In this document: piece after piece, positions 58,879-64,000 of the stretch
Position numbering within the stretch: the first letter of the stretch is position 1
Layout of the letters: every line of letters begins with the position of its first letter
Source of the DNA: Clostridiaceae bacterium
Lineage (GTDB): Bacteria; Bacillota; Clostridia; Oscillospirales; Acutalibacteraceae
Assembly (NCBI GenBank): GCA_016297645.1
Contig: JAEDGF010000002.1
Span: forward strand, 5,266 to 69,265
Length of the DNA stretch: 64,000 nt
Direction: 5' to 3'
Program-made: the position numbers and the translations under genes
Notes under the pieces: generated by a model
The model's database searches: none
Seen by the model: the letters and a program-made list of their open reading frames with translations, nothing else
What the model was told of the DNA's origin: nothing

Positions 58879-59019
58879 CCGAGTTGTATATTTTCAGGAA
58901 AAAACTCCAAAGAAAAAACACAGTTGATTTGTTGAAAACAGTAGATTTTAAAAGTATTATGTGATAAAATAAATTTTGATTGAGTCAAAGGACGCAAAGG
59001 AACTGTTAAGGGGCTATGT

Positions 59020-59979
59020 ATGAATCTGCTTCACATGAAATACGCGGTTGAAATAGCCGAAACGAACTCCCTGAATAAAGCGGCGGAGCATTTGTTCGTG
59101 GGGCAGTCGGCGCTCAGCCGCGCCGTCAAAGAGCTTGAGCTGAATCTCGGTGTGACGCTCTTTGAGCGCAGCGCAAAGGGAATGACTTTGACTCCGGACG
59201 GCGAAACATTTATCGGTTATGCGCGCGGTGTTTTGAAGCAGGTAGAGAATATCGAAAATGTATTCAAAAAGAAAAGTGCCGTAAAAAAGAGCTTTTCGCT
59301 GTCTGCACCCCGTTCGAGCTACATTTGTGAGGCGTTTGCCGATTTTTCGAAAGGCTTTTCCGCTTTTGACGATATTGAGGTTTTTTACAGTGAAACGAAT
59401 ACCATGCGTACCGTGAAAAATGTCATGCAGGACGATTTTCGTCTCGGAATCGTGCGTTACGCCGAGGAGCTTGACAGATACTATAAATCTCTGTTCGATG
59501 AAGAATCGCTGAATTACGAGGTCATATGCGAATTTCGTTATGTGCTTTTGGCAAGTGAGAAAAGTACGCTCGCAGAAAAAGAAGCCGTTTCATTTGATGA
59601 TTTGAAGGGATATATCGAAATTCTCCACGCAGACCCGTCTGTGCCGTCACTCCCGTTCTCCGATTTGAAAAAGACCGAAAAGCCGGACGGAACGGGGAAG
59701 AAGATATATGTTTTCGAAAGGGCAAGTCAGTTTGAACTTCTCTCGAAAAATCCCGATACCTTTATGTGGGTCGCCCCTGTTTCCGACGAAATAATGCAGC
59801 GGTATTCGCTATGTAATCTCCCATGCGGAGAAAACAACCGGCTCTACAAGGATGTGCTCGTCTACAAAAAAGATTACAGCCTGACTGAACTTGACAATAG
59901 ATTTATCGACCTGCTTGTCAAAGCCAAGCGGAGGTTTTTTCCGGCGACAGGTTCGAGAAATAACGGGAGGTATTTATGA
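59020..59979 (+). CDS. LysR-family transcriptional regulator
   Basis: N-terminal HTH MNLLHMKYAVEIAETNSLNKAAEHLFVGQSALSRAVKELE plus a substrate-binding domain. Confidence 0.85.
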   Translation: MNLLHMKYAVEIAETNSLNKAAEHLFVGQSALSRAVKELELNLGVTLFERSAKGMTLTPDGETFIGYARGVLKQVENIENVFKKKSAVKKSFSLSAPRSSYICEAFADFSKGFSAFDDIEVFYSETNTMRTVKNVMQDDFRLGIVRYAEELDRYYKSLFDEESLNYEVICEFRYVLLASEKSTLAEKEAVSFDDLKGYIEILHADPSVPSLPFSDLKKTEKPDGTGKKIYVFERASQFELLSKNPDTFMWVAPVSDEIMQRYSLCNLPCGENNRLYKDVLVYKKDYSLTELDNRFIDLLVKAKRRFFPATGSRNNGRYL

Positions 59980-60722
59980 ATTTTGACAGGATTATTGCAG
60001 TAAGAAACGATAAAACGGTCTACCGCGATTCCGAACGGTGCCTGAAAGTTTTTAATTCCGGCTACACAAAGGCGGATGTCCTTAACGAGGCGCTCAACCA
60101 GGCAAGGCTTGAATGCAGCGAACTCAATGTCCCGAAGGTGCTTGAAGTTACCGAAATCGACGGCAAATGGACGATAATATCGGAATTTATAAGGGGAAAA
60201 ACACTTGAACAGCTTATGAAGGACAGCCCCGAAAAAAAAGAGGAGCTTCTTCGGCGTTTTGTGTCCTTGCAGATACAAACACAGGGAGTTGTTTGCGAAG
60301 GACTTATTTCTCTTAAAGAAAAAATGATACTTAACATAAGCCGCAGTGATCTTGTTGCGACAACGCGTTACGATCTTCTGATGAAGGTTGAAGCAATGCA
60401 CAAGGACAATAAGGTCTGCCATTGCGAGTTCGAACCTTCAAACATAATCGTTACGGACGCAGGCGAGGCGTACATCGTAGATTGGGCGCACGCCGCTCAG
60501 GGTGATCCGCTTGCCGACGCTGCGAGAACATATCTGTATTTCTACTTACAGGGAGATAAGGACGGCGCTCGGCAGTATCTTGATCTTTACTGTGAAATGA
60601 GCGCTTCCGATGCACAGGTCGTAAAAAAATGGCTGCCGCTTGTTGCGGCTGCCCGCAGCACGGGCTGCAACTCTGCCGAACGCGATATGCTGATAAATTT
60701 AGTTAACTCACAGATTTTTTAA
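59976..60722 (+). CDS. APH/choline-kinase-fold kinase-like protein with a variant catalytic loop (HCEFEPSN)
   Basis: Brenner-type motif H-x-[D>E]-x4-N and downstream IVDW. The start overlaps the LysR stop (ATGA). Confidence 0.6.
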   Translation: MNFDRIIAVRNDKTVYRDSERCLKVFNSGYTKADVLNEALNQARLECSELNVPKVLEVTEIDGKWTIISEFIRGKTLEQLMKDSPEKKEELLRRFVSLQIQTQGVVCEGLISLKEKMILNISRSDLVATTRYDLLMKVEAMHKDNKVCHCEFEPSNIIVTDAGEAYIVDWAHAAQGDPLADAARTYLYFYLQGDKDGARQYLDLYCEMSASDAQVVKKWLPLVAAARSTGCNSAERDMLINLVNSQIF

Positions 60723-60738
60723 GGAGGATACATAATAT

Positions 60739-60984
60739 ATGAAAATTACTGTATGCATAGGCTCGTCATGCCATATCAAGGGTTCAAGACAGGTTGTCGA
60801 GCAGTTCCAGACGCTCATAAGCGAATATAACCTCGGCGACCGTGTTGAGCTTGCCGGTACATTTTGCATGGGTAAATGCGACAAGGGCGTATGCGTTACG
60901 ATTGACGATGATTTCTTTTCTGTTGCACCCGAGCTTGCAAAAGAGTTTTTCGTTGAAAATGTTCTGTCGAAGGTGAGAAGATGA
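60739..60984 (+). CDS. Thioredoxin-like [2Fe-2S] ferredoxin (copy 1)
   Basis: The Cys pattern ICIGSSCHIKG ... FCMGKC fits the NuoE/HymA-like small ferredoxin fold. Confidence 0.7.
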   Translation: MKITVCIGSSCHIKGSRQVVEQFQTLISEYNLGDRVELAGTFCMGKCDKGVCVTIDDDFFSVAPELAKEFFVENVLSKVRR

Positions 60985-61229
60985 TAATTCAGATTTGCGT
61001 CGGTTCTTCATGCCATATAAAAGGCTCGGAGGAGCTTGTTGATCTTTTTCAGGATGCCATAGCTAAGAACGGTCTTGAAGGCGAAATAACACTTGCCGGA
61101 AGTTTTTGTACCGGCAGATGTAATCGCGAGGGCGTAACCGTTGCGGTGGATGATGATGTTTTTACGGGTGTTACCCCCGAAAAGTTTGAGGCGTTTTTTG
61201 AAGAAAACATATTGAAAAGAATAAAGTAA
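60981..61229 (+). CDS. Thioredoxin-like [2Fe-2S] ferredoxin (copy 2, tandem paralogue)
   Basis: ICVGSSCHIKG ... FCTGRC. Overlaps copy 1 by 4 nt. Confidence 0.7.
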   Translation: MIIQICVGSSCHIKGSEELVDLFQDAIAKNGLEGEITLAGSFCTGRCNREGVTVAVDDDVFTGVTPEKFEAFFEENILKRIK

Positions 61230-61248
61230 TCGTCGGGAGATTTTACTT

Positions 61249-62922
61249 ATGGAATGCCTTACATTAAAAAAATCAAATTGCAAGAACTGCTATAAGTGTA
61301 TTCGCCACTGTCCGGTAAAATCAATTCGTTTTTCCGGAAATCAGGCGTATATTATCGGAAATGAGTGCATTATGTGCGGTCAGTGCTTTGTTGTTTGTCC
61401 GCAGGATGCAAAGCAGATAGTTGACGAAACCGAAAAGGTCAAGGTTCTTCTTCAATCGGGCGATCCCGTTATAATAAGCCTTGCGCCGTCGTTCATTGCG
61501 AACTACGAGGGTGTAGGTATCGGCGCAATGCGCGAAGCCGCGAAAAAGCTCGGCTTTTTTGATGTTGAAGAAACGGCGATAGGTGCTACGATAGTTAAAA
61601 ACGAGTATGAAAAAATGCTTGCGGACGGCACAAGAGATATTCTTATATCCTCCTGCTGTCATTCCGTTAATCTGCTTATTCAAAAATATTTTCCGTCGGT
61701 TTTGCCCTATCTTGCGGATATCGTTTCTCCCATGCAGGCACACTGCAAAGATATAAAACGCCGTTACCCGAACGCAAAAACTGTTTTCGTCGGGCCGTGC
61801 GTTGCAAAGAAGGATGAAGCTCAGTATTACGAGGGGATAGTTGACGCCGTTCTTACATTTGATGAGCTTACGGCGTGGTTGAAGGCGGAGAATGTTGTCC
61901 CCGAAGTCAAAGAAGATGAGGGCGATGAAGGTCTTGCACGCTTCTTCCCCACTACGGGCGGTATTCTTAAATCAATGACGGAAACCTCGCCCGACTACAC
62001 CTATATGGCTATCGACGGTACGGAAAACTGTATTTCCGCACTTAAAGATATTTCTGAGGGCAAAATTCACCGCTGCTTTATTGAAATGTCGGCGTGTGTC
62101 GGCAGCTGTGTCGGAGGTCCCGTAATGGAAAAATTCCACCGTTCACCGATAAAGGATTATCTTGCCGTTGCCCACTTTGCAAAAGATAAAGATTTTGAAG
62201 TCGTCCAGCCGGAAGAAATCGAAATGCAGAAAAACTTTACTGCAATTGAAAAGAAGCTGCAACCGCCTACGGAGTCCGAAATACGCGAGATACTCCGTCA
62301 GATGGGTAAAATGAAGCCGTCCGACGAGCTTAACTGCGGCTCCTGTGGCTACGACAGCTGCCGCGAAAAAGCCATTGCAATTTATCAGGGCAAGGCTGAA
62401 ATCTCCATGTGTCTGCCGTATCTTAAAGACAAGGCGGAGAGCTTTTCCGACACGATCGTCAGAAATACGCCGAACGGACTTATTGTCCTGAATGAAAAGC
62501 TCGAAGTTCAGCAAATAAACAAGGCAGCGCTTAAAATAATGAACCTTCGTTTTGCCTCAGATATTCTCGGCGACGGTGTTGTACGCATTATGGACACCTC
62601 CGATTTTGTGTCCGTACTCAATACCGGTTCGAGAATCGAAGGTAAACGCGTATATCTTGCCGAATATGATAAATATGTAGAAGAAACAATTGTTTACGAC
62701 CGTGAGTTCAGACTTTTGATATGCATTCTCAGGGATGTTACTGAGGAGGAAACTCAGCGCGAGAAGAAGGAAAATATCAGCCGTCAGACTGTTGAAATAG
62801 CAGACAAGGTCGTTGATAAACAAATGCGTATTGTTCAGGAAATTGCTTCACTGTTGGGCGAAACCGCAGCCGAAACAAAAATCGCACTCTCAAAATTGAA
62901 GGAGTCGATAAACAATGAATAA
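61249..62922 (+). CDS. hydS: Sensory [FeFe]-hydrogenase-like protein (HydS, group C) with a C-terminal PAS-like domain
   Basis: Two N-terminal 4Fe-4S motifs (CKNCYKCIRHCP, CIMCGQCFVVCP). H-domain motifs SSCCH, GPCVAKKDE and EMSACVGSCVGGP. An extra Cx2Cx4Cx16C motif (CGSCGYDSC...C), then a PAS-like region. Confidence 0.8.
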   Translation: MECLTLKKSNCKNCYKCIRHCPVKSIRFSGNQAYIIGNECIMCGQCFVVCPQDAKQIVDETEKVKVLLQSGDPVIISLAPSFIANYEGVGIGAMREAAKKLGFFDVEETAIGATIVKNEYEKMLADGTRDILISSCCHSVNLLIQKYFPSVLPYLADIVSPMQAHCKDIKRRYPNAKTVFVGPCVAKKDEAQYYEGIVDAVLTFDELTAWLKAENVVPEVKEDEGDEGLARFFPTTGGILKSMTETSPDYTYMAIDGTENCISALKDISEGKIHRCFIEMSACVGSCVGGPVMEKFHRSPIKDYLAVAHFAKDKDFEVVQPEEIEMQKNFTAIEKKLQPPTESEIREILRQMGKMKPSDELNCGSCGYDSCREKAIAIYQGKAEISMCLPYLKDKAESFSDTIVRNTPNGLIVLNEKLEVQQINKAALKIMNLRFASDILGDGVVRIMDTSDFVSVLNTGSRIEGKRVYLAEYDKYVEETIVYDREFRLLICILRDVTEEETQREKKENISRQTVEIADKVVDKQMRIVQEIASLLGETAAETKIALSKLKESINNE

Positions 62923-64000
62923 TCTATGCGCAGATATAGGTTGGAAAAGCATCAACCACGAGGGTGAGCAGCTCTGCGGCGACCATGTCGATATAGTCGA
63001 GCAAGGCGAGGACTCCACCGTTATCGTTCTTGCCGACGGACTGGGAAGCGGAGTAAAAGCCAGCATTCTTTCGACTCTTACGTCAAAAATGATTTCAACC
63101 ATGATGGCAGAGGGGATATCCTTGGAGGAATGCGTTTCAGCAATTGCCGCAACGCTGCCGATTTGCTCCGTAAGGGGAGTAGCTTATTCTACGTTTACGA
63201 TAATCCACCTGAAAGACAATTCAACGGCGGAAATAATACAGTATGATAATCCGCCGGTCATAATGTTCCGCAACTTTGAAAGATATGATTACCCGAAGCA
63301 GGAATTAAACATAGACGGTAAGAAAATTTTTAAATCGGTTATCCAGCTCAATGAGGACGATTGCTTTGTCGTGATGAGCGACGGTTGTCCGCACGCCGGA
63401 ATAGGGACGGCTTTCAACTTCGGTTGGAAGGTAGACGAAATTGCCGATTTTATGCAGAGCATTGTGCCTGTCGGTTACACGGCAAAAACGCTTTCAACCA
63501 TGCTTGTTGACGAATGTGATAAGCTGTACGGAAACCACCCCGGGGATGACGCAACGGCTTGCGTTGTCCGGATAAGAAAACGCTGTCAGGTAAATCTCCT
63601 GTTCGGTCCTCCCCGCAACCGCGATGACTGCAACAGAATGATGTCGCTTTTCTTTTCAAAAGAGGGTAAGCACATTGTCTGCGGCGGAACGACTTCTTCA
63701 ATTGTGTCGAAATATCTCGGCAAACCCGTAAGGGCAAGCTTGAAATATGAACGCAGCGATGTTCCCCCGATTGCGGAAATCGAAGGCGTCGACCTCGTGA
63801 CCGAAGGCGTTATTACGATAAACAAAGTTATCGAATATGCCAAAGACGCACTCGGGACAAACGAGCTTTACGAGCATTGGGGATATAAGCGTGACGGCGC
63901 TTCGCTTATCTGCCGTATGCTTTTTGAAGAAGCCACTGACATAAATTTCTATGTCGGGCGCGCCGTAAACCCGGCTCACCAAAATCCCGATCTTCCCATC
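62915..64000 (+). CDS. PP2C/SpoIIE-family serine phosphatase, 3' end outside the window
   Basis: ATG 62915 overlaps the hydS stop region. Motifs GDHVDIV, VLADGLGSGVKAS, SDG and DDATA. The frame is open to the window end, so it is absent from the ORF track. Confidence 0.75.
   Translation, partial: MNNLCADIGWKSINHEGEQLCGDHVDIVEQGEDSTVIVLADGLGSGVKASILSTLTSKMISTMMAEGISLEECVSAIAATLPICSVRGVAYSTFTIIHLKDNSTAEIIQYDNPPVIMFRNFERYDYPKQELNIDGKKIFKSVIQLNEDDCFVVMSDGCPHAGIGTAFNFGWKVDEIADFMQSIVPVGYTAKTLSTMLVDECDKLYGNHPGDDATACVVRIRKRCQVNLLFGPPRNRDDCNRMMSLFFSKEGKHIVCGGTTSSIVSKYLGKPVRASLKYERSDVPPIAEIEGVDLVTEGVITINKVIEYAKDALGTNELYEHWGYKRDGASLICRMLFEEATDINFYVGRAVNPAHQNPDLPI

Follow-up and report, generated by a model that had tools for sequence, protein, structure and literature searches.

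Gene content of the hydS locus

At the downstream end of the 64,000-nucleotide stretch of DNA that we analyzed (the window; G000:C45:5266-69265, contig JAEDGF010000002.1), which belongs to a 143-contig metagenome-assembled genome of the Acutalibacteraceae with a completeness of 97.9%, lies a compact set of forward-strand genes built around hydS, the gene for a putative sensory [FeFe]-hydrogenase. The set very probably corresponds to a hydrogen-responsive cluster already described in Ruminococcus albus. Six open reading frames begin within the window, at positions and with domains that a preliminary description of the sequence had listed and that Pfam and NCBIfam models recovered. They are lysR (59020 to 59979), encoding a putative LysR-family transcription regulator of 319 amino acids (aa); a gene for an APH/ChoK-fold kinase-like protein (59976 to 60722; 248 aa), hereafter the APH-like gene; fd1 (60739 to 60984; 81 aa) and fd2 (60981 to 61229; 82 aa), encoding two thioredoxin-like [2Fe-2S] ferredoxins; hydS itself (61249 to 62922; 557 aa); and a PP2C/SpoIIE-type phosphatase gene that starts at 62915, reaches the end of the window at 64000, and runs on to G000:C45:69352 (L002 5353), 87 nucleotides (nt) beyond the window, to give 390 aa in full. 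It had been suggested that a hydrogenase gene might follow, and downstream extension of the sequence revealed hydA2 (G000:C45:69400-70821, equivalent to L002 5401-6822; 135-1556 nt beyond the window), which encodes a 473-aa group B [FeFe]-hydrogenase on the same strand.

The genes are closely packed, with intergenic gaps from lysR to hydA2 of -4, 16, -4, 19, -8, and 47 nt. The three stop/start overlaps that had been reported can be read directly from the DNA: ATGA joins the lysR stop to the APH-like start at 59976-59979, a second ATGA joins the fd1 stop to the fd2 start at 60981-60984, and hydS and the PP2C gene, which are translationally coupled, share the 8 nt ATGAATAA at 62915-62922. Upstream of lysR, on the forward strand, is a promoter-like region (58932 to 58970; TTGAAA-17-TATTAT) that matched 10 of 12 positions in a consensus scan and is a consensus match only. 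It overlaps an extended -10 element, TGATAAAAT (58962-58970, forward strand), about 50 nt ahead of lysR, and many orthologous loci have an extended -10 of the TGnTAtAAT type 45 to 55 nt upstream of lysR. A search of the region upstream of lysR for a Rex box or other conserved operator yielded no convincing site, only this shared extended -10. At the other end, a terminator-like hairpin follows hydA2 (L002 7006-7026), again as a consensus match only and of a kind not found above shuffled expectation; beyond it, convergent DUF4037, TPR, and cysK genes close the unit. From the short gaps, the promoter-like site before lysR, and the hairpin after hydA2, we infer that lysR, the APH-like gene, fd1, fd2, hydS, the PP2C gene, and hydA2 form a single seven-gene operon.

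The HydS protein consists of two N-terminal [4Fe-4S] motifs, an H-domain, a Cx2Cx4Cx16C cluster, a PAS domain, and a conserved C-terminal helix. Its Fe_hyd_lg_C domain was recognized with an E value of 3.2e-48, and the N-terminal dicluster, with the motifs CKNCYKCIRHCP and CIMCGQCFVVCP, was matched by Fer4 dicluster families. The motifs quoted for this protein (SSCCH, GPCVAKKDE, EMSACVGSCVGGP, and CGSCGYDSC-x16-C) are all present in the translation. When aligned to the hydrogenase CpI, SSCC, GPC, and ACVGSC fall on C300, C355, C499, and C503, such that all four cysteine ligands of the H-cluster are kept. The CGSCGYDSC-x16-C segment has the Cx2Cx4Cx16C form and scores 41.1 bits with PF04060 "FeS" (cutoff, 23; E value, 1.5e-10). 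For the PAS-like C terminus, the outcome depended on the depth of the comparison. With the single HydS sequence, Pfam PAS families stayed below cutoff (best E value, 0.008). With a profile of the tail built from 41 orthologues, there was a match to the PAS domain of CitA (5fq1; E value, 4.8e-6), as well as to those of ThkA, WalK, DosP, and FixL, and a Pfam PAS family was matched at an E value of 1 or less in 41/41 orthologues, the best at 8e-11. Behind the PAS domain, a helix about 55 residues long is very strongly conserved.

These features support the assignment of 61249-62922 to a putative sensory [FeFe]-hydrogenase of group C, as the preliminary description had proposed; the protein is PAS-bearing and of the M2f type. 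The M2f architecture, which combines a C-terminal [4Fe-4S] cluster with a PAS domain, separates group C from the PAS-less group D. Placement in a catalytic group, which the preliminary description had named as a refutation, was not borne out: models of catalytic hydrogenases scored HydS far under their cutoffs, with 83 bits for the group A model TIGR02512 (cutoff, 406), 83 bits for NF040763 (cutoff, 765), and 194 bits for the group B1 model TIGR04105 (cutoff, 450). At the positions of CpI M353 and M497, HydS has Gly and Ser, which are typical of sensory enzymes (in TmHydS the equivalent Ser is S267), and at the position of C299 it has Cys. The placement is also suggested by 70% identity to the HydS of R. 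albus, which was classed in group C and of which the phosphatase is regarded as a subunit (Greening et al. 2019, PMC6776011).

The genes on either side of hydS encode its likely redox and signaling partners. Fd1 and Fd2 are paralogous (48% identity), share the cysteine pattern C6-x4-C11-x31-C43-x3-C47, and exceed the 24.8-bit cutoff of PF01257 (2Fe-2S_thioredx) with 32.8 bits (7.5e-8) and 37.1 bits (3.6e-9), respectively; Fd1 is NuoE/HoxE-like by NCBIfam, and its gene is preceded by an AAGGAGG ribosome-binding site. HydA2, a monomeric enzyme whose gene begins 47 nt past the PP2C stop, carries the motifs TSSCCP, GPCTAKK, and MACVGGCIGG and scores 563.6 bits with TIGR04105 against a cutoff of 450. 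There is a clash of labels here: the ferredoxin-only HydA2 of R. albus is termed "group A1" in Greening et al. 2019, whereas the 73%-identical orthologue at this locus passes the model for group B1.

The phosphatase has two parts. Residues 1-222 form the PP2C domain, which was matched by the SpoIIE family, PF07228 (3.8e-14 with the in-window portion of the protein; 4.6e-14 and 53 bits with the complete protein; cutoff, 25). In a Foldseek search, the AlphaFold2 model of the full-length phosphatase, with a predicted local distance difference test score (pLDDT) of 78, had as its top PDB matches SpoIIE (5mqh; E value, 9e-14), RsbX, RssB, and the RsbU domain of Rv1364c. A set of 41 orthologues shows no variation at the metal-binding motif residues D23, D41-G42, D156-G157, and D211-D212, and the motifs DG.G, SDG, and GDD are likewise invariant. 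The rest of the protein, residues 223-390, is a distinct alpha/beta domain of about 165 aa, encoded from 63581 of the window to 84 nt beyond it, in which GPP, CGGTT, DLVTEG, and NPAHQN are invariant. Forty members of this C-terminal domain were checked, and none belonged to a Pfam family. Across the 1082 representative clusters in which the domain was found, it mostly ends PP2C proteins of about 390 aa, but there are also stand-alone proteins of about 160-170 aa. Two identities for the domain were considered. For a SIS domain there was one weak match (3trj; E value, 0.005) and no Pfam support in the 40 members, and the domain was left as an unassigned alpha/beta domain; a DRTGG domain was rejected, with an hhalign probability of 0.5%.

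Relation to known systems and to loci in relatives

A tblastn search of plasmids with HydS led to pRUMAL01 of R. albus 7, with 70% identity. The cluster on that plasmid (RUMAL_RS17345-17385) reads LysR, Rex, AdhE, phosphotransferase, two (2Fe-2S) ferredoxins, HydS, SpoIIE phosphatase, and HydA2. Reportedly, the study behind it is that of Zheng and colleagues (J Bacteriol, 2014). Apart from rex and adhE, the gene order is the same at our locus, as are the orientation, the hydS/PP2C overlap, and the presence of two ferredoxins. Protein identities to R. albus are 51% for LysR (RUMAL_RS17345), 53% for the APH-like protein (RS17360), 67% for Fd1 (RS17365), 68% for Fd2 (RS17370), 70% for HydS, 76% for PP2C (RS17380), and 73% for HydA2 (RS17385). 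The two loci differ in that ours has neither rex nor adhE between lysR and the APH-like gene, that its lysR overlaps the APH-like gene whereas lysR of R. albus is separated from the cluster, that its APH-like protein has Glu in place of the catalytic Asp, and that it appears to be chromosomal, with glnN, asnB, and cysK as flanking genes, rather than on a megaplasmid. In R. albus, the eight-gene cluster, including the kinase-like gene, was expressed at 111-fold-lower levels in coculture with a hydrogen consumer (Greening et al. 2019), and HydA2 transcripts are about 90-fold lower when such a consumer keeps H2 low. Judged by sequence identity and gene order, then, the locus is an orthologue of the H2-responsive hydS/hydA2 cluster of R. 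albus 7, a system that has already been described, and it adds no new principle. The earlier view of its composition as a new circuit does not hold, since the genes and their order are those of pRUMAL01, whose cluster has been published as H2 regulated; the functional idea that accompanied that view is a published hypothesis.

Other systems resemble parts of the locus. For example, hfsBCD of Thermoanaerobacterium is the recognized equivalent of the hydS/hydA2 unit, and a regulatory role of hfsB has been shown genetically (PMC11837493). By description, the hfsABCD operon of T. saccharolyticum and T. thermosaccharolyticum encodes a PAS-bearing hydrogenase (HfsB), a Ser phosphatase (HfsC), and a HydA2-like ferredoxin hydrogenase (HfsD) in the same order (PMC11837493). 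However, HfsA is described in other terms than the thioredoxin-like ferredoxins, and reports on the hfs operon mention neither LysR nor APH genes. The HydS of Thermotoga maritima shares the M2f architecture and likewise has Ser in place of M497 and a small residue in place of M353 (PMC10055695), but C299 is replaced by Ala, where HydS of the window has Cys. A more distant analogy, drawn by Greening et al. (2019), is the regulatory [NiFe]-hydrogenase HoxBC-HoxJ-HoxA of Cupriavidus necator. In that system a low-activity hydrogenase likewise acts as an H2 sensor that steers hydrogenase gene expression by phospho-signaling, yet the enzyme belongs to an unrelated class and works through a histidine kinase and response regulator, with no PP2C.

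The distribution of the genes among relatives divides the operon in two. In a sample of 121 genomes of the family, one per genus apart from the window's own, HydS orthologues were found in 55. The order Fd-HydS-PP2C-HydA2 was present in nearly all of 40 family loci that we examined, down to a HydS identity of 38-43%, while APH was limited to a closer clade and LysR to a subset. A profile of the PP2C C-terminal domain found at least 593 species loci, and the tallies that follow refer to the best 80 with named species. PP2C followed HydS in 64/64 loci, and HydA2 came after PP2C in 59/64. The 8-nt hydS/PP2C overlap was kept in 59/72 loci. Two ferredoxin genes preceded HydS in 64/69 close loci, with a single ferredoxin in distant relatives. 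APH lay directly upstream of the ferredoxin genes in 54/69 loci, and LysR headed the cluster in at least 36/80. Upstream of the ferredoxin genes, the layout varied: LysR>Rex>AdhE>APH was found in 12-13 of the 80 species, LysR>AdhE>APH in 8, LysR>APH (the window type) in 7-9, and LysR>Rex>APH in 3-4, and architectures with and without Rex and AdhE interchanged among close species. We also sought a replacement kinase beside hydS in relatives that are distant or have no APH; none was found, and the flanks were heterogeneous. The comparisons point to Fd(-Fd)-HydS-PP2C-HydA2, with the C-terminal domain on the PP2C, as a tight core and invariant unit.

The remaining genes appear to have a history of their own. 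In LysR, an HTH_1 domain was recognized (2e-19; 69.7 bits; cutoff, 26.6), while its LysR_substrate domain scores 22.2 bits against a cutoff of 28, and the full-length protein falls far under the equivalog cutoffs of CidR-, GltC-, and CcpC-type models. The 3' end of lysR contains, at 59911-59931 and just before the APH-like start, a hairpin that resembles a terminator and has a T-run (CTGCTTGTCAAAGCCAAGCGG AGGTTTTTT). Transcription that comes through lysR could be attenuated there before it reaches the remaining genes of the operon; matches of that kind in the region are not above chance.

In the family sample, here counted as 120 genera, the APH family was present in 60, including 22 without HydS; 16 HydS-positive genera had no APH family member. 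Among the 38 HydS-positive genera with APH, the gene was beside hydS in 19-20 and elsewhere in 18. Of 38 APH loci that are not next to hydS, 24 had adhE as the adjoining gene, in the order AdhE>APH or, in a clade with 38% identity, APH>AdhE, while other neighbors were heterogeneous. The layouts LysR(<)-Rex-AdhE-APH and LysR(<)-AdhE-APH were also seen in genomes that have no HydS (L158 and L160). Relatives of LysR (E value of 1e-50 or less) were found in 7 HydS-negative genera, and related LysR genes adjoin adhE in HydS-negative genomes. On the strength of this distribution, in which 22 genera have APH but no HydS and adhE is the recurrent neighbor, we reject APH as a dedicated partner of HydS. 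Because both genes are also found together with adhE where HydS is absent, the comparisons assign LysR and the APH-like gene to an adhE-linked module rather than to the specific signaling parts of HydS. The R. albus-type cluster is accordingly read, from gene neighborhoods, as a fusion of an adhE module (LysR/Rex/AdhE/APH-like) with the core hydS module. Synteny of LysR and APH with hydS, the lack of which the preliminary description had named as a refutation, was seen in many relatives; the Fd-HydS-PP2C-HydA2 core holds together, whereas LysR and APH are also linked to adhE in the absence of HydS. As a separate observation, the orders AdhE>APH>HydA2-like and APH>HydA2-like, with no HydS or PP2C between, were seen at L163 (G094) and L193 (G085:C9), which means that the kinase-like gene can be all that separates adhE from a group-B-like hydrogenase.

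In the organism studied here, the adhE module seems to be reduced. Bifunctional adhE was not found in the assembly, where the best tblastn matches to the AdhE of R. albus were partial and 33% identical, and the only Rex homologue in the genome is weak (29%, on C124). The bacterium is probably unable to form ethanol through AdhE, the route under the control of the cluster in R. albus. Across loci, the ratio of APH to HydS divergence had a median of 1.50 without adjacent adhE versus 1.09 with it (Mann-Whitney p 1.7e-6, for loci that are related and nonindependent), and by this ratio the APH-like copy of the window ranked 2nd of 67.

Possible transmission of the signal from HydS

We consider it very likely that the locus is an orthologue of hydS/hydA2 of R. 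albus and of hfsBCD, arranged as a seven-gene operon in which two modules have been fused and from which rex and adhE have been lost. Based on published systems, H2 would be bound by HydS at the H-cluster, and electrons would exit by way of its FeS chain, with the two dedicated thioredoxin-like [2Fe-2S] ferredoxins as their probable acceptors. The C-terminal [4Fe-4S]/PAS/helix region of HydS would alter the activity of bound PP2C, and the phosphorylation state of its target would raise the expression of ferredoxin-dependent HydA2, and of AdhE where present, as H2 accumulates. The loss of rex and adhE in this species would have left lysR joined by the ATGA overlap to a fast-evolving APH-like gene. 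In such a scheme, the C-terminal domain of the PP2C is the best candidate for the missing signaling link.

An alternative is that the operon is a self-contained circuit in which HydS controls PP2C, the APH-like protein acts as the opposing Ser/Thr kinase, and LysR is a phospho- or redox-regulated output that drives the operon. The tight packing of all genes by overlapping stops and starts is what such a circuit would lead one to expect, and so are the leading position of LysR (at least 36/80 species), the placement of APH directly upstream of the ferredoxin genes (54/69), and the inclusion of the kinase-like gene of R. albus in an H2-regulated eight-gene cluster. Yet genomes that have neither HydS nor PP2C also contain APH and LysR together with adhE, 16 HydS-positive genera do without APH, and no replacement kinase was found in distant clusters. 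LysR regulators, moreover, are not known to be phosphoproteins. The APH-like protein itself matches PF01636 (2.4e-12; 47.6 bits; cutoff, 23.2), and the nearest solved structures to its AlphaFold2 model (pLDDT, 92) are APH(3')-Ia, APH(4)-Ia, and YtaA/CotI, with template modeling scores of about 0.65-0.70 (0.67-0.70 for APH(3')-Ia and APH(4)-Ia). The modeled fold would thus be closest to small-molecule (aminoglycoside) kinases and lends no specific support to a Ser/Thr protein kinase role. Furthermore, the catalytic loop (residues 149-156) reads HCEFEPSN, with Glu for the catalytic Asp of the usual form, HGDFNPSN. That Asp is kept in 49/51 APH orthologues, including the congener; 48 read HGD, and the exceptions are the HCE of the window and one HGG. 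The protein does keep the metal-binding D169-W170, the beta3 Lys, and the alphaC Glu. Since the fold resembles that of small-molecule kinases and the catalytic Asp has been lost, a role of the APH-like protein as the kinase opposing PP2C is unproven and, in this bacterium, doubtful. We regard the self-contained circuit as unlikely. Of the complete sensor-to-transcription circuit that was first proposed, the sensor, the phosphatase, and the hydrogenase stand, but LysR and APH as dedicated signaling parts do not.

If the opposing kinase is not encoded beside hydS, it could be encoded elsewhere in the genome. A second hydrogenase cluster (G000:C119:2-7999, minus strand) contains genes for HydC (NuoE-like), a DRTGG protein, an RsbW-type HATPase_c_2 kinase (143 aa), a hydrogenase, a PHP protein, HydB, and a bifurcating-type HydA. 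The hydrogenase, of 428 aa, is PAS-less, has a CGACGSPTC/PF04060 motif, and is a group-D-like putative sensor. When the sporulation proteins SpoIIAA, SpoIIAB, and SpoIIE are set aside, a single further SpoIIE-type PP2C and a single further HATPase_c_2 kinase remain in the genome; no second STAS protein was found in it beyond the sporulation one. These counts could be read as a push-pull switch, in which the RsbW/SpoIIAB-type kinase of C119 counteracts the PP2C linked to HydS, with both acting on one non-STAS phosphoprotein. The nearest structures to the PP2C (SpoIIE, RsbX, and RsbU type) are classic opponents of such kinases, the kinase gene adjoins a hydrogenase with the same PF04060 cluster, and the kinase is present in 41/54 HydS-positive genera. 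However, it is missing from 13 HydS-positive genera, several of them 98-100% complete, and present in 28 HydS-negative genera, and its association with HydS may only mirror shared hydrogenase content. In addition, the DRTGG neighbor of the kinase is unrelated to the PP2C C-terminal domain. The PP2C of the window also departs from the partner-switching phosphatases SpoIIE, RsbU, and RsbX, with which it shares its closest fold and the conserved metal-binding Asp motifs, in having no STAS substrate or adjacent HATPase_c_2 kinase and in having the 165-aa C-terminal domain. We therefore view the push-pull switch as very unlikely.

Cofactor maturation and hydrogen sensing

Several observations weigh against the interpretation of the locus as an H2-sensing orthologue of the R. 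albus system with a decaying remnant of the adhE module. First, HydS keeps the Cys equivalent to C299 of CpI, as do about 17% of sensory sequences, such that appreciable catalytic activity is possible. Second, the literature continues to describe H2 sensing as "putative" for every group C enzyme. Third, the loci behind the comparison of APH rates are not independent of one another, and the LysR>APH layout without adhE recurs in 7-9/80 species that keep the catalytic Asp, which indicates that absence of adhE does not by itself mean decay of the APH gene. Finally, the assembly has no HydE, HydF, or HydG, and if this gap is real, the H-cluster could not be built by the known route.

The first of these observations raises the possibility that 61249-62922 encodes a low-activity catalytic hydrogenase and not a sensor, with the two ferredoxins as its redox partners. 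The proton-relay Cys and the two adjacent ferredoxin genes would fit such a role, and turnover by TmHydS and TamHydS is reported to be measurable in the literature. Nevertheless, a catalytic enzyme would not be expected to have a PAS domain, obligatory coupling to PP2C (64/64), the sensory-type Gly and Ser at the M353 and M497 positions, and a separate catalytic HydA2 in the same operon, and genetic work on R. albus and on hfsB of Thermoanaerobacterium indicates a regulatory role. We give this possibility almost no weight.

The maturase gap deserves closer attention. The genome has four [FeFe]-hydrogenase-type genes or systems: HydS, HydA2, a bifurcating HydABC, and the group-D-like sensor. 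HydG was not detected in the 97.9%-complete assembly, and tblastn with HydG and HydE of the same genus gave no match. Neither HydE (best score, 20.9 bits; cutoff, 254.6) nor HydF (best, 84 bits; cutoff, 325.6) was found above cutoff in the assembly, and the same was true of HypD and HypF. Substitution of HydG by hypFCDE is rejected for this genome, as HypD and HypF were not found above cutoff. The pattern extends beyond one organism: in the family sample, 26/54 HydS-positive genera had no HydG, and 4/5 well-assembled examples (98-99% complete) also had no HydE and HydF. In one relative, at L040 (G031:C1:130436-131587), an orphan hydF that scores above cutoff (557.6 bits) is found immediately upstream of the LysR-APH-Fd-Fd-HydS cluster, and neither hydE nor hydG was found in that genome. 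Hosts of [FeFe]-hydrogenases without maturases have been documented for archaea and some eukaryotes; our literature search found no statement of such hosts for gut Clostridia. The gap may be an assembly artifact, though it recurs in good assemblies.

One could conclude from this gap that no H2 sensing takes place here, with HydS and HydA2 lacking the [2Fe] subcluster and the module being either inert or a reporter of FeS-cluster redox state. The failure of HydE/F/G, HypD, and HypF to score above cutoff in the assembly favors such a reading, as does the parallel absence of HydG, and in four of five well-assembled cases of HydE and HydF, from HydS-positive relatives. But the H-cluster's ligands and the residues of its pocket are all conserved, and purifying selection is evident (70-84% identity to relatives for HydS and 73-86% for HydA2), which argues for functional holoenzymes. 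The genome is also a metagenome-assembled one in 143 contigs, and active [FeFe]-hydrogenases have been reported in maturase-less organisms of other lineages. We therefore find it quite unlikely that the module does not sense H2. For the broader claim that this bacterium and about half of the family's HydS genera truly lack HydE/F/G, and either have an unknown route to the [2Fe] subcluster or use these proteins as FeS-only redox sensors, we see a small but appreciable chance.

Among rumen and gut fermenters, HydS-PP2C is thought to choose between venting H2 through a ferredoxin-only hydrogenase, together with ethanol formation, and the use of a bifurcating hydrogenase with acetate formation. 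That choice bears on methane emission and on the H2 balance of the gut. With the locus read as an orthologue of the R. albus system, our comparisons narrow the question of how the signal leaves HydS, as the kinase-like and LysR genes appear to go with adhE rather than with the sensor. Should the maturase gap prove real, it would have consequences for all estimates of H2 production that are derived from genomes of these lineages.

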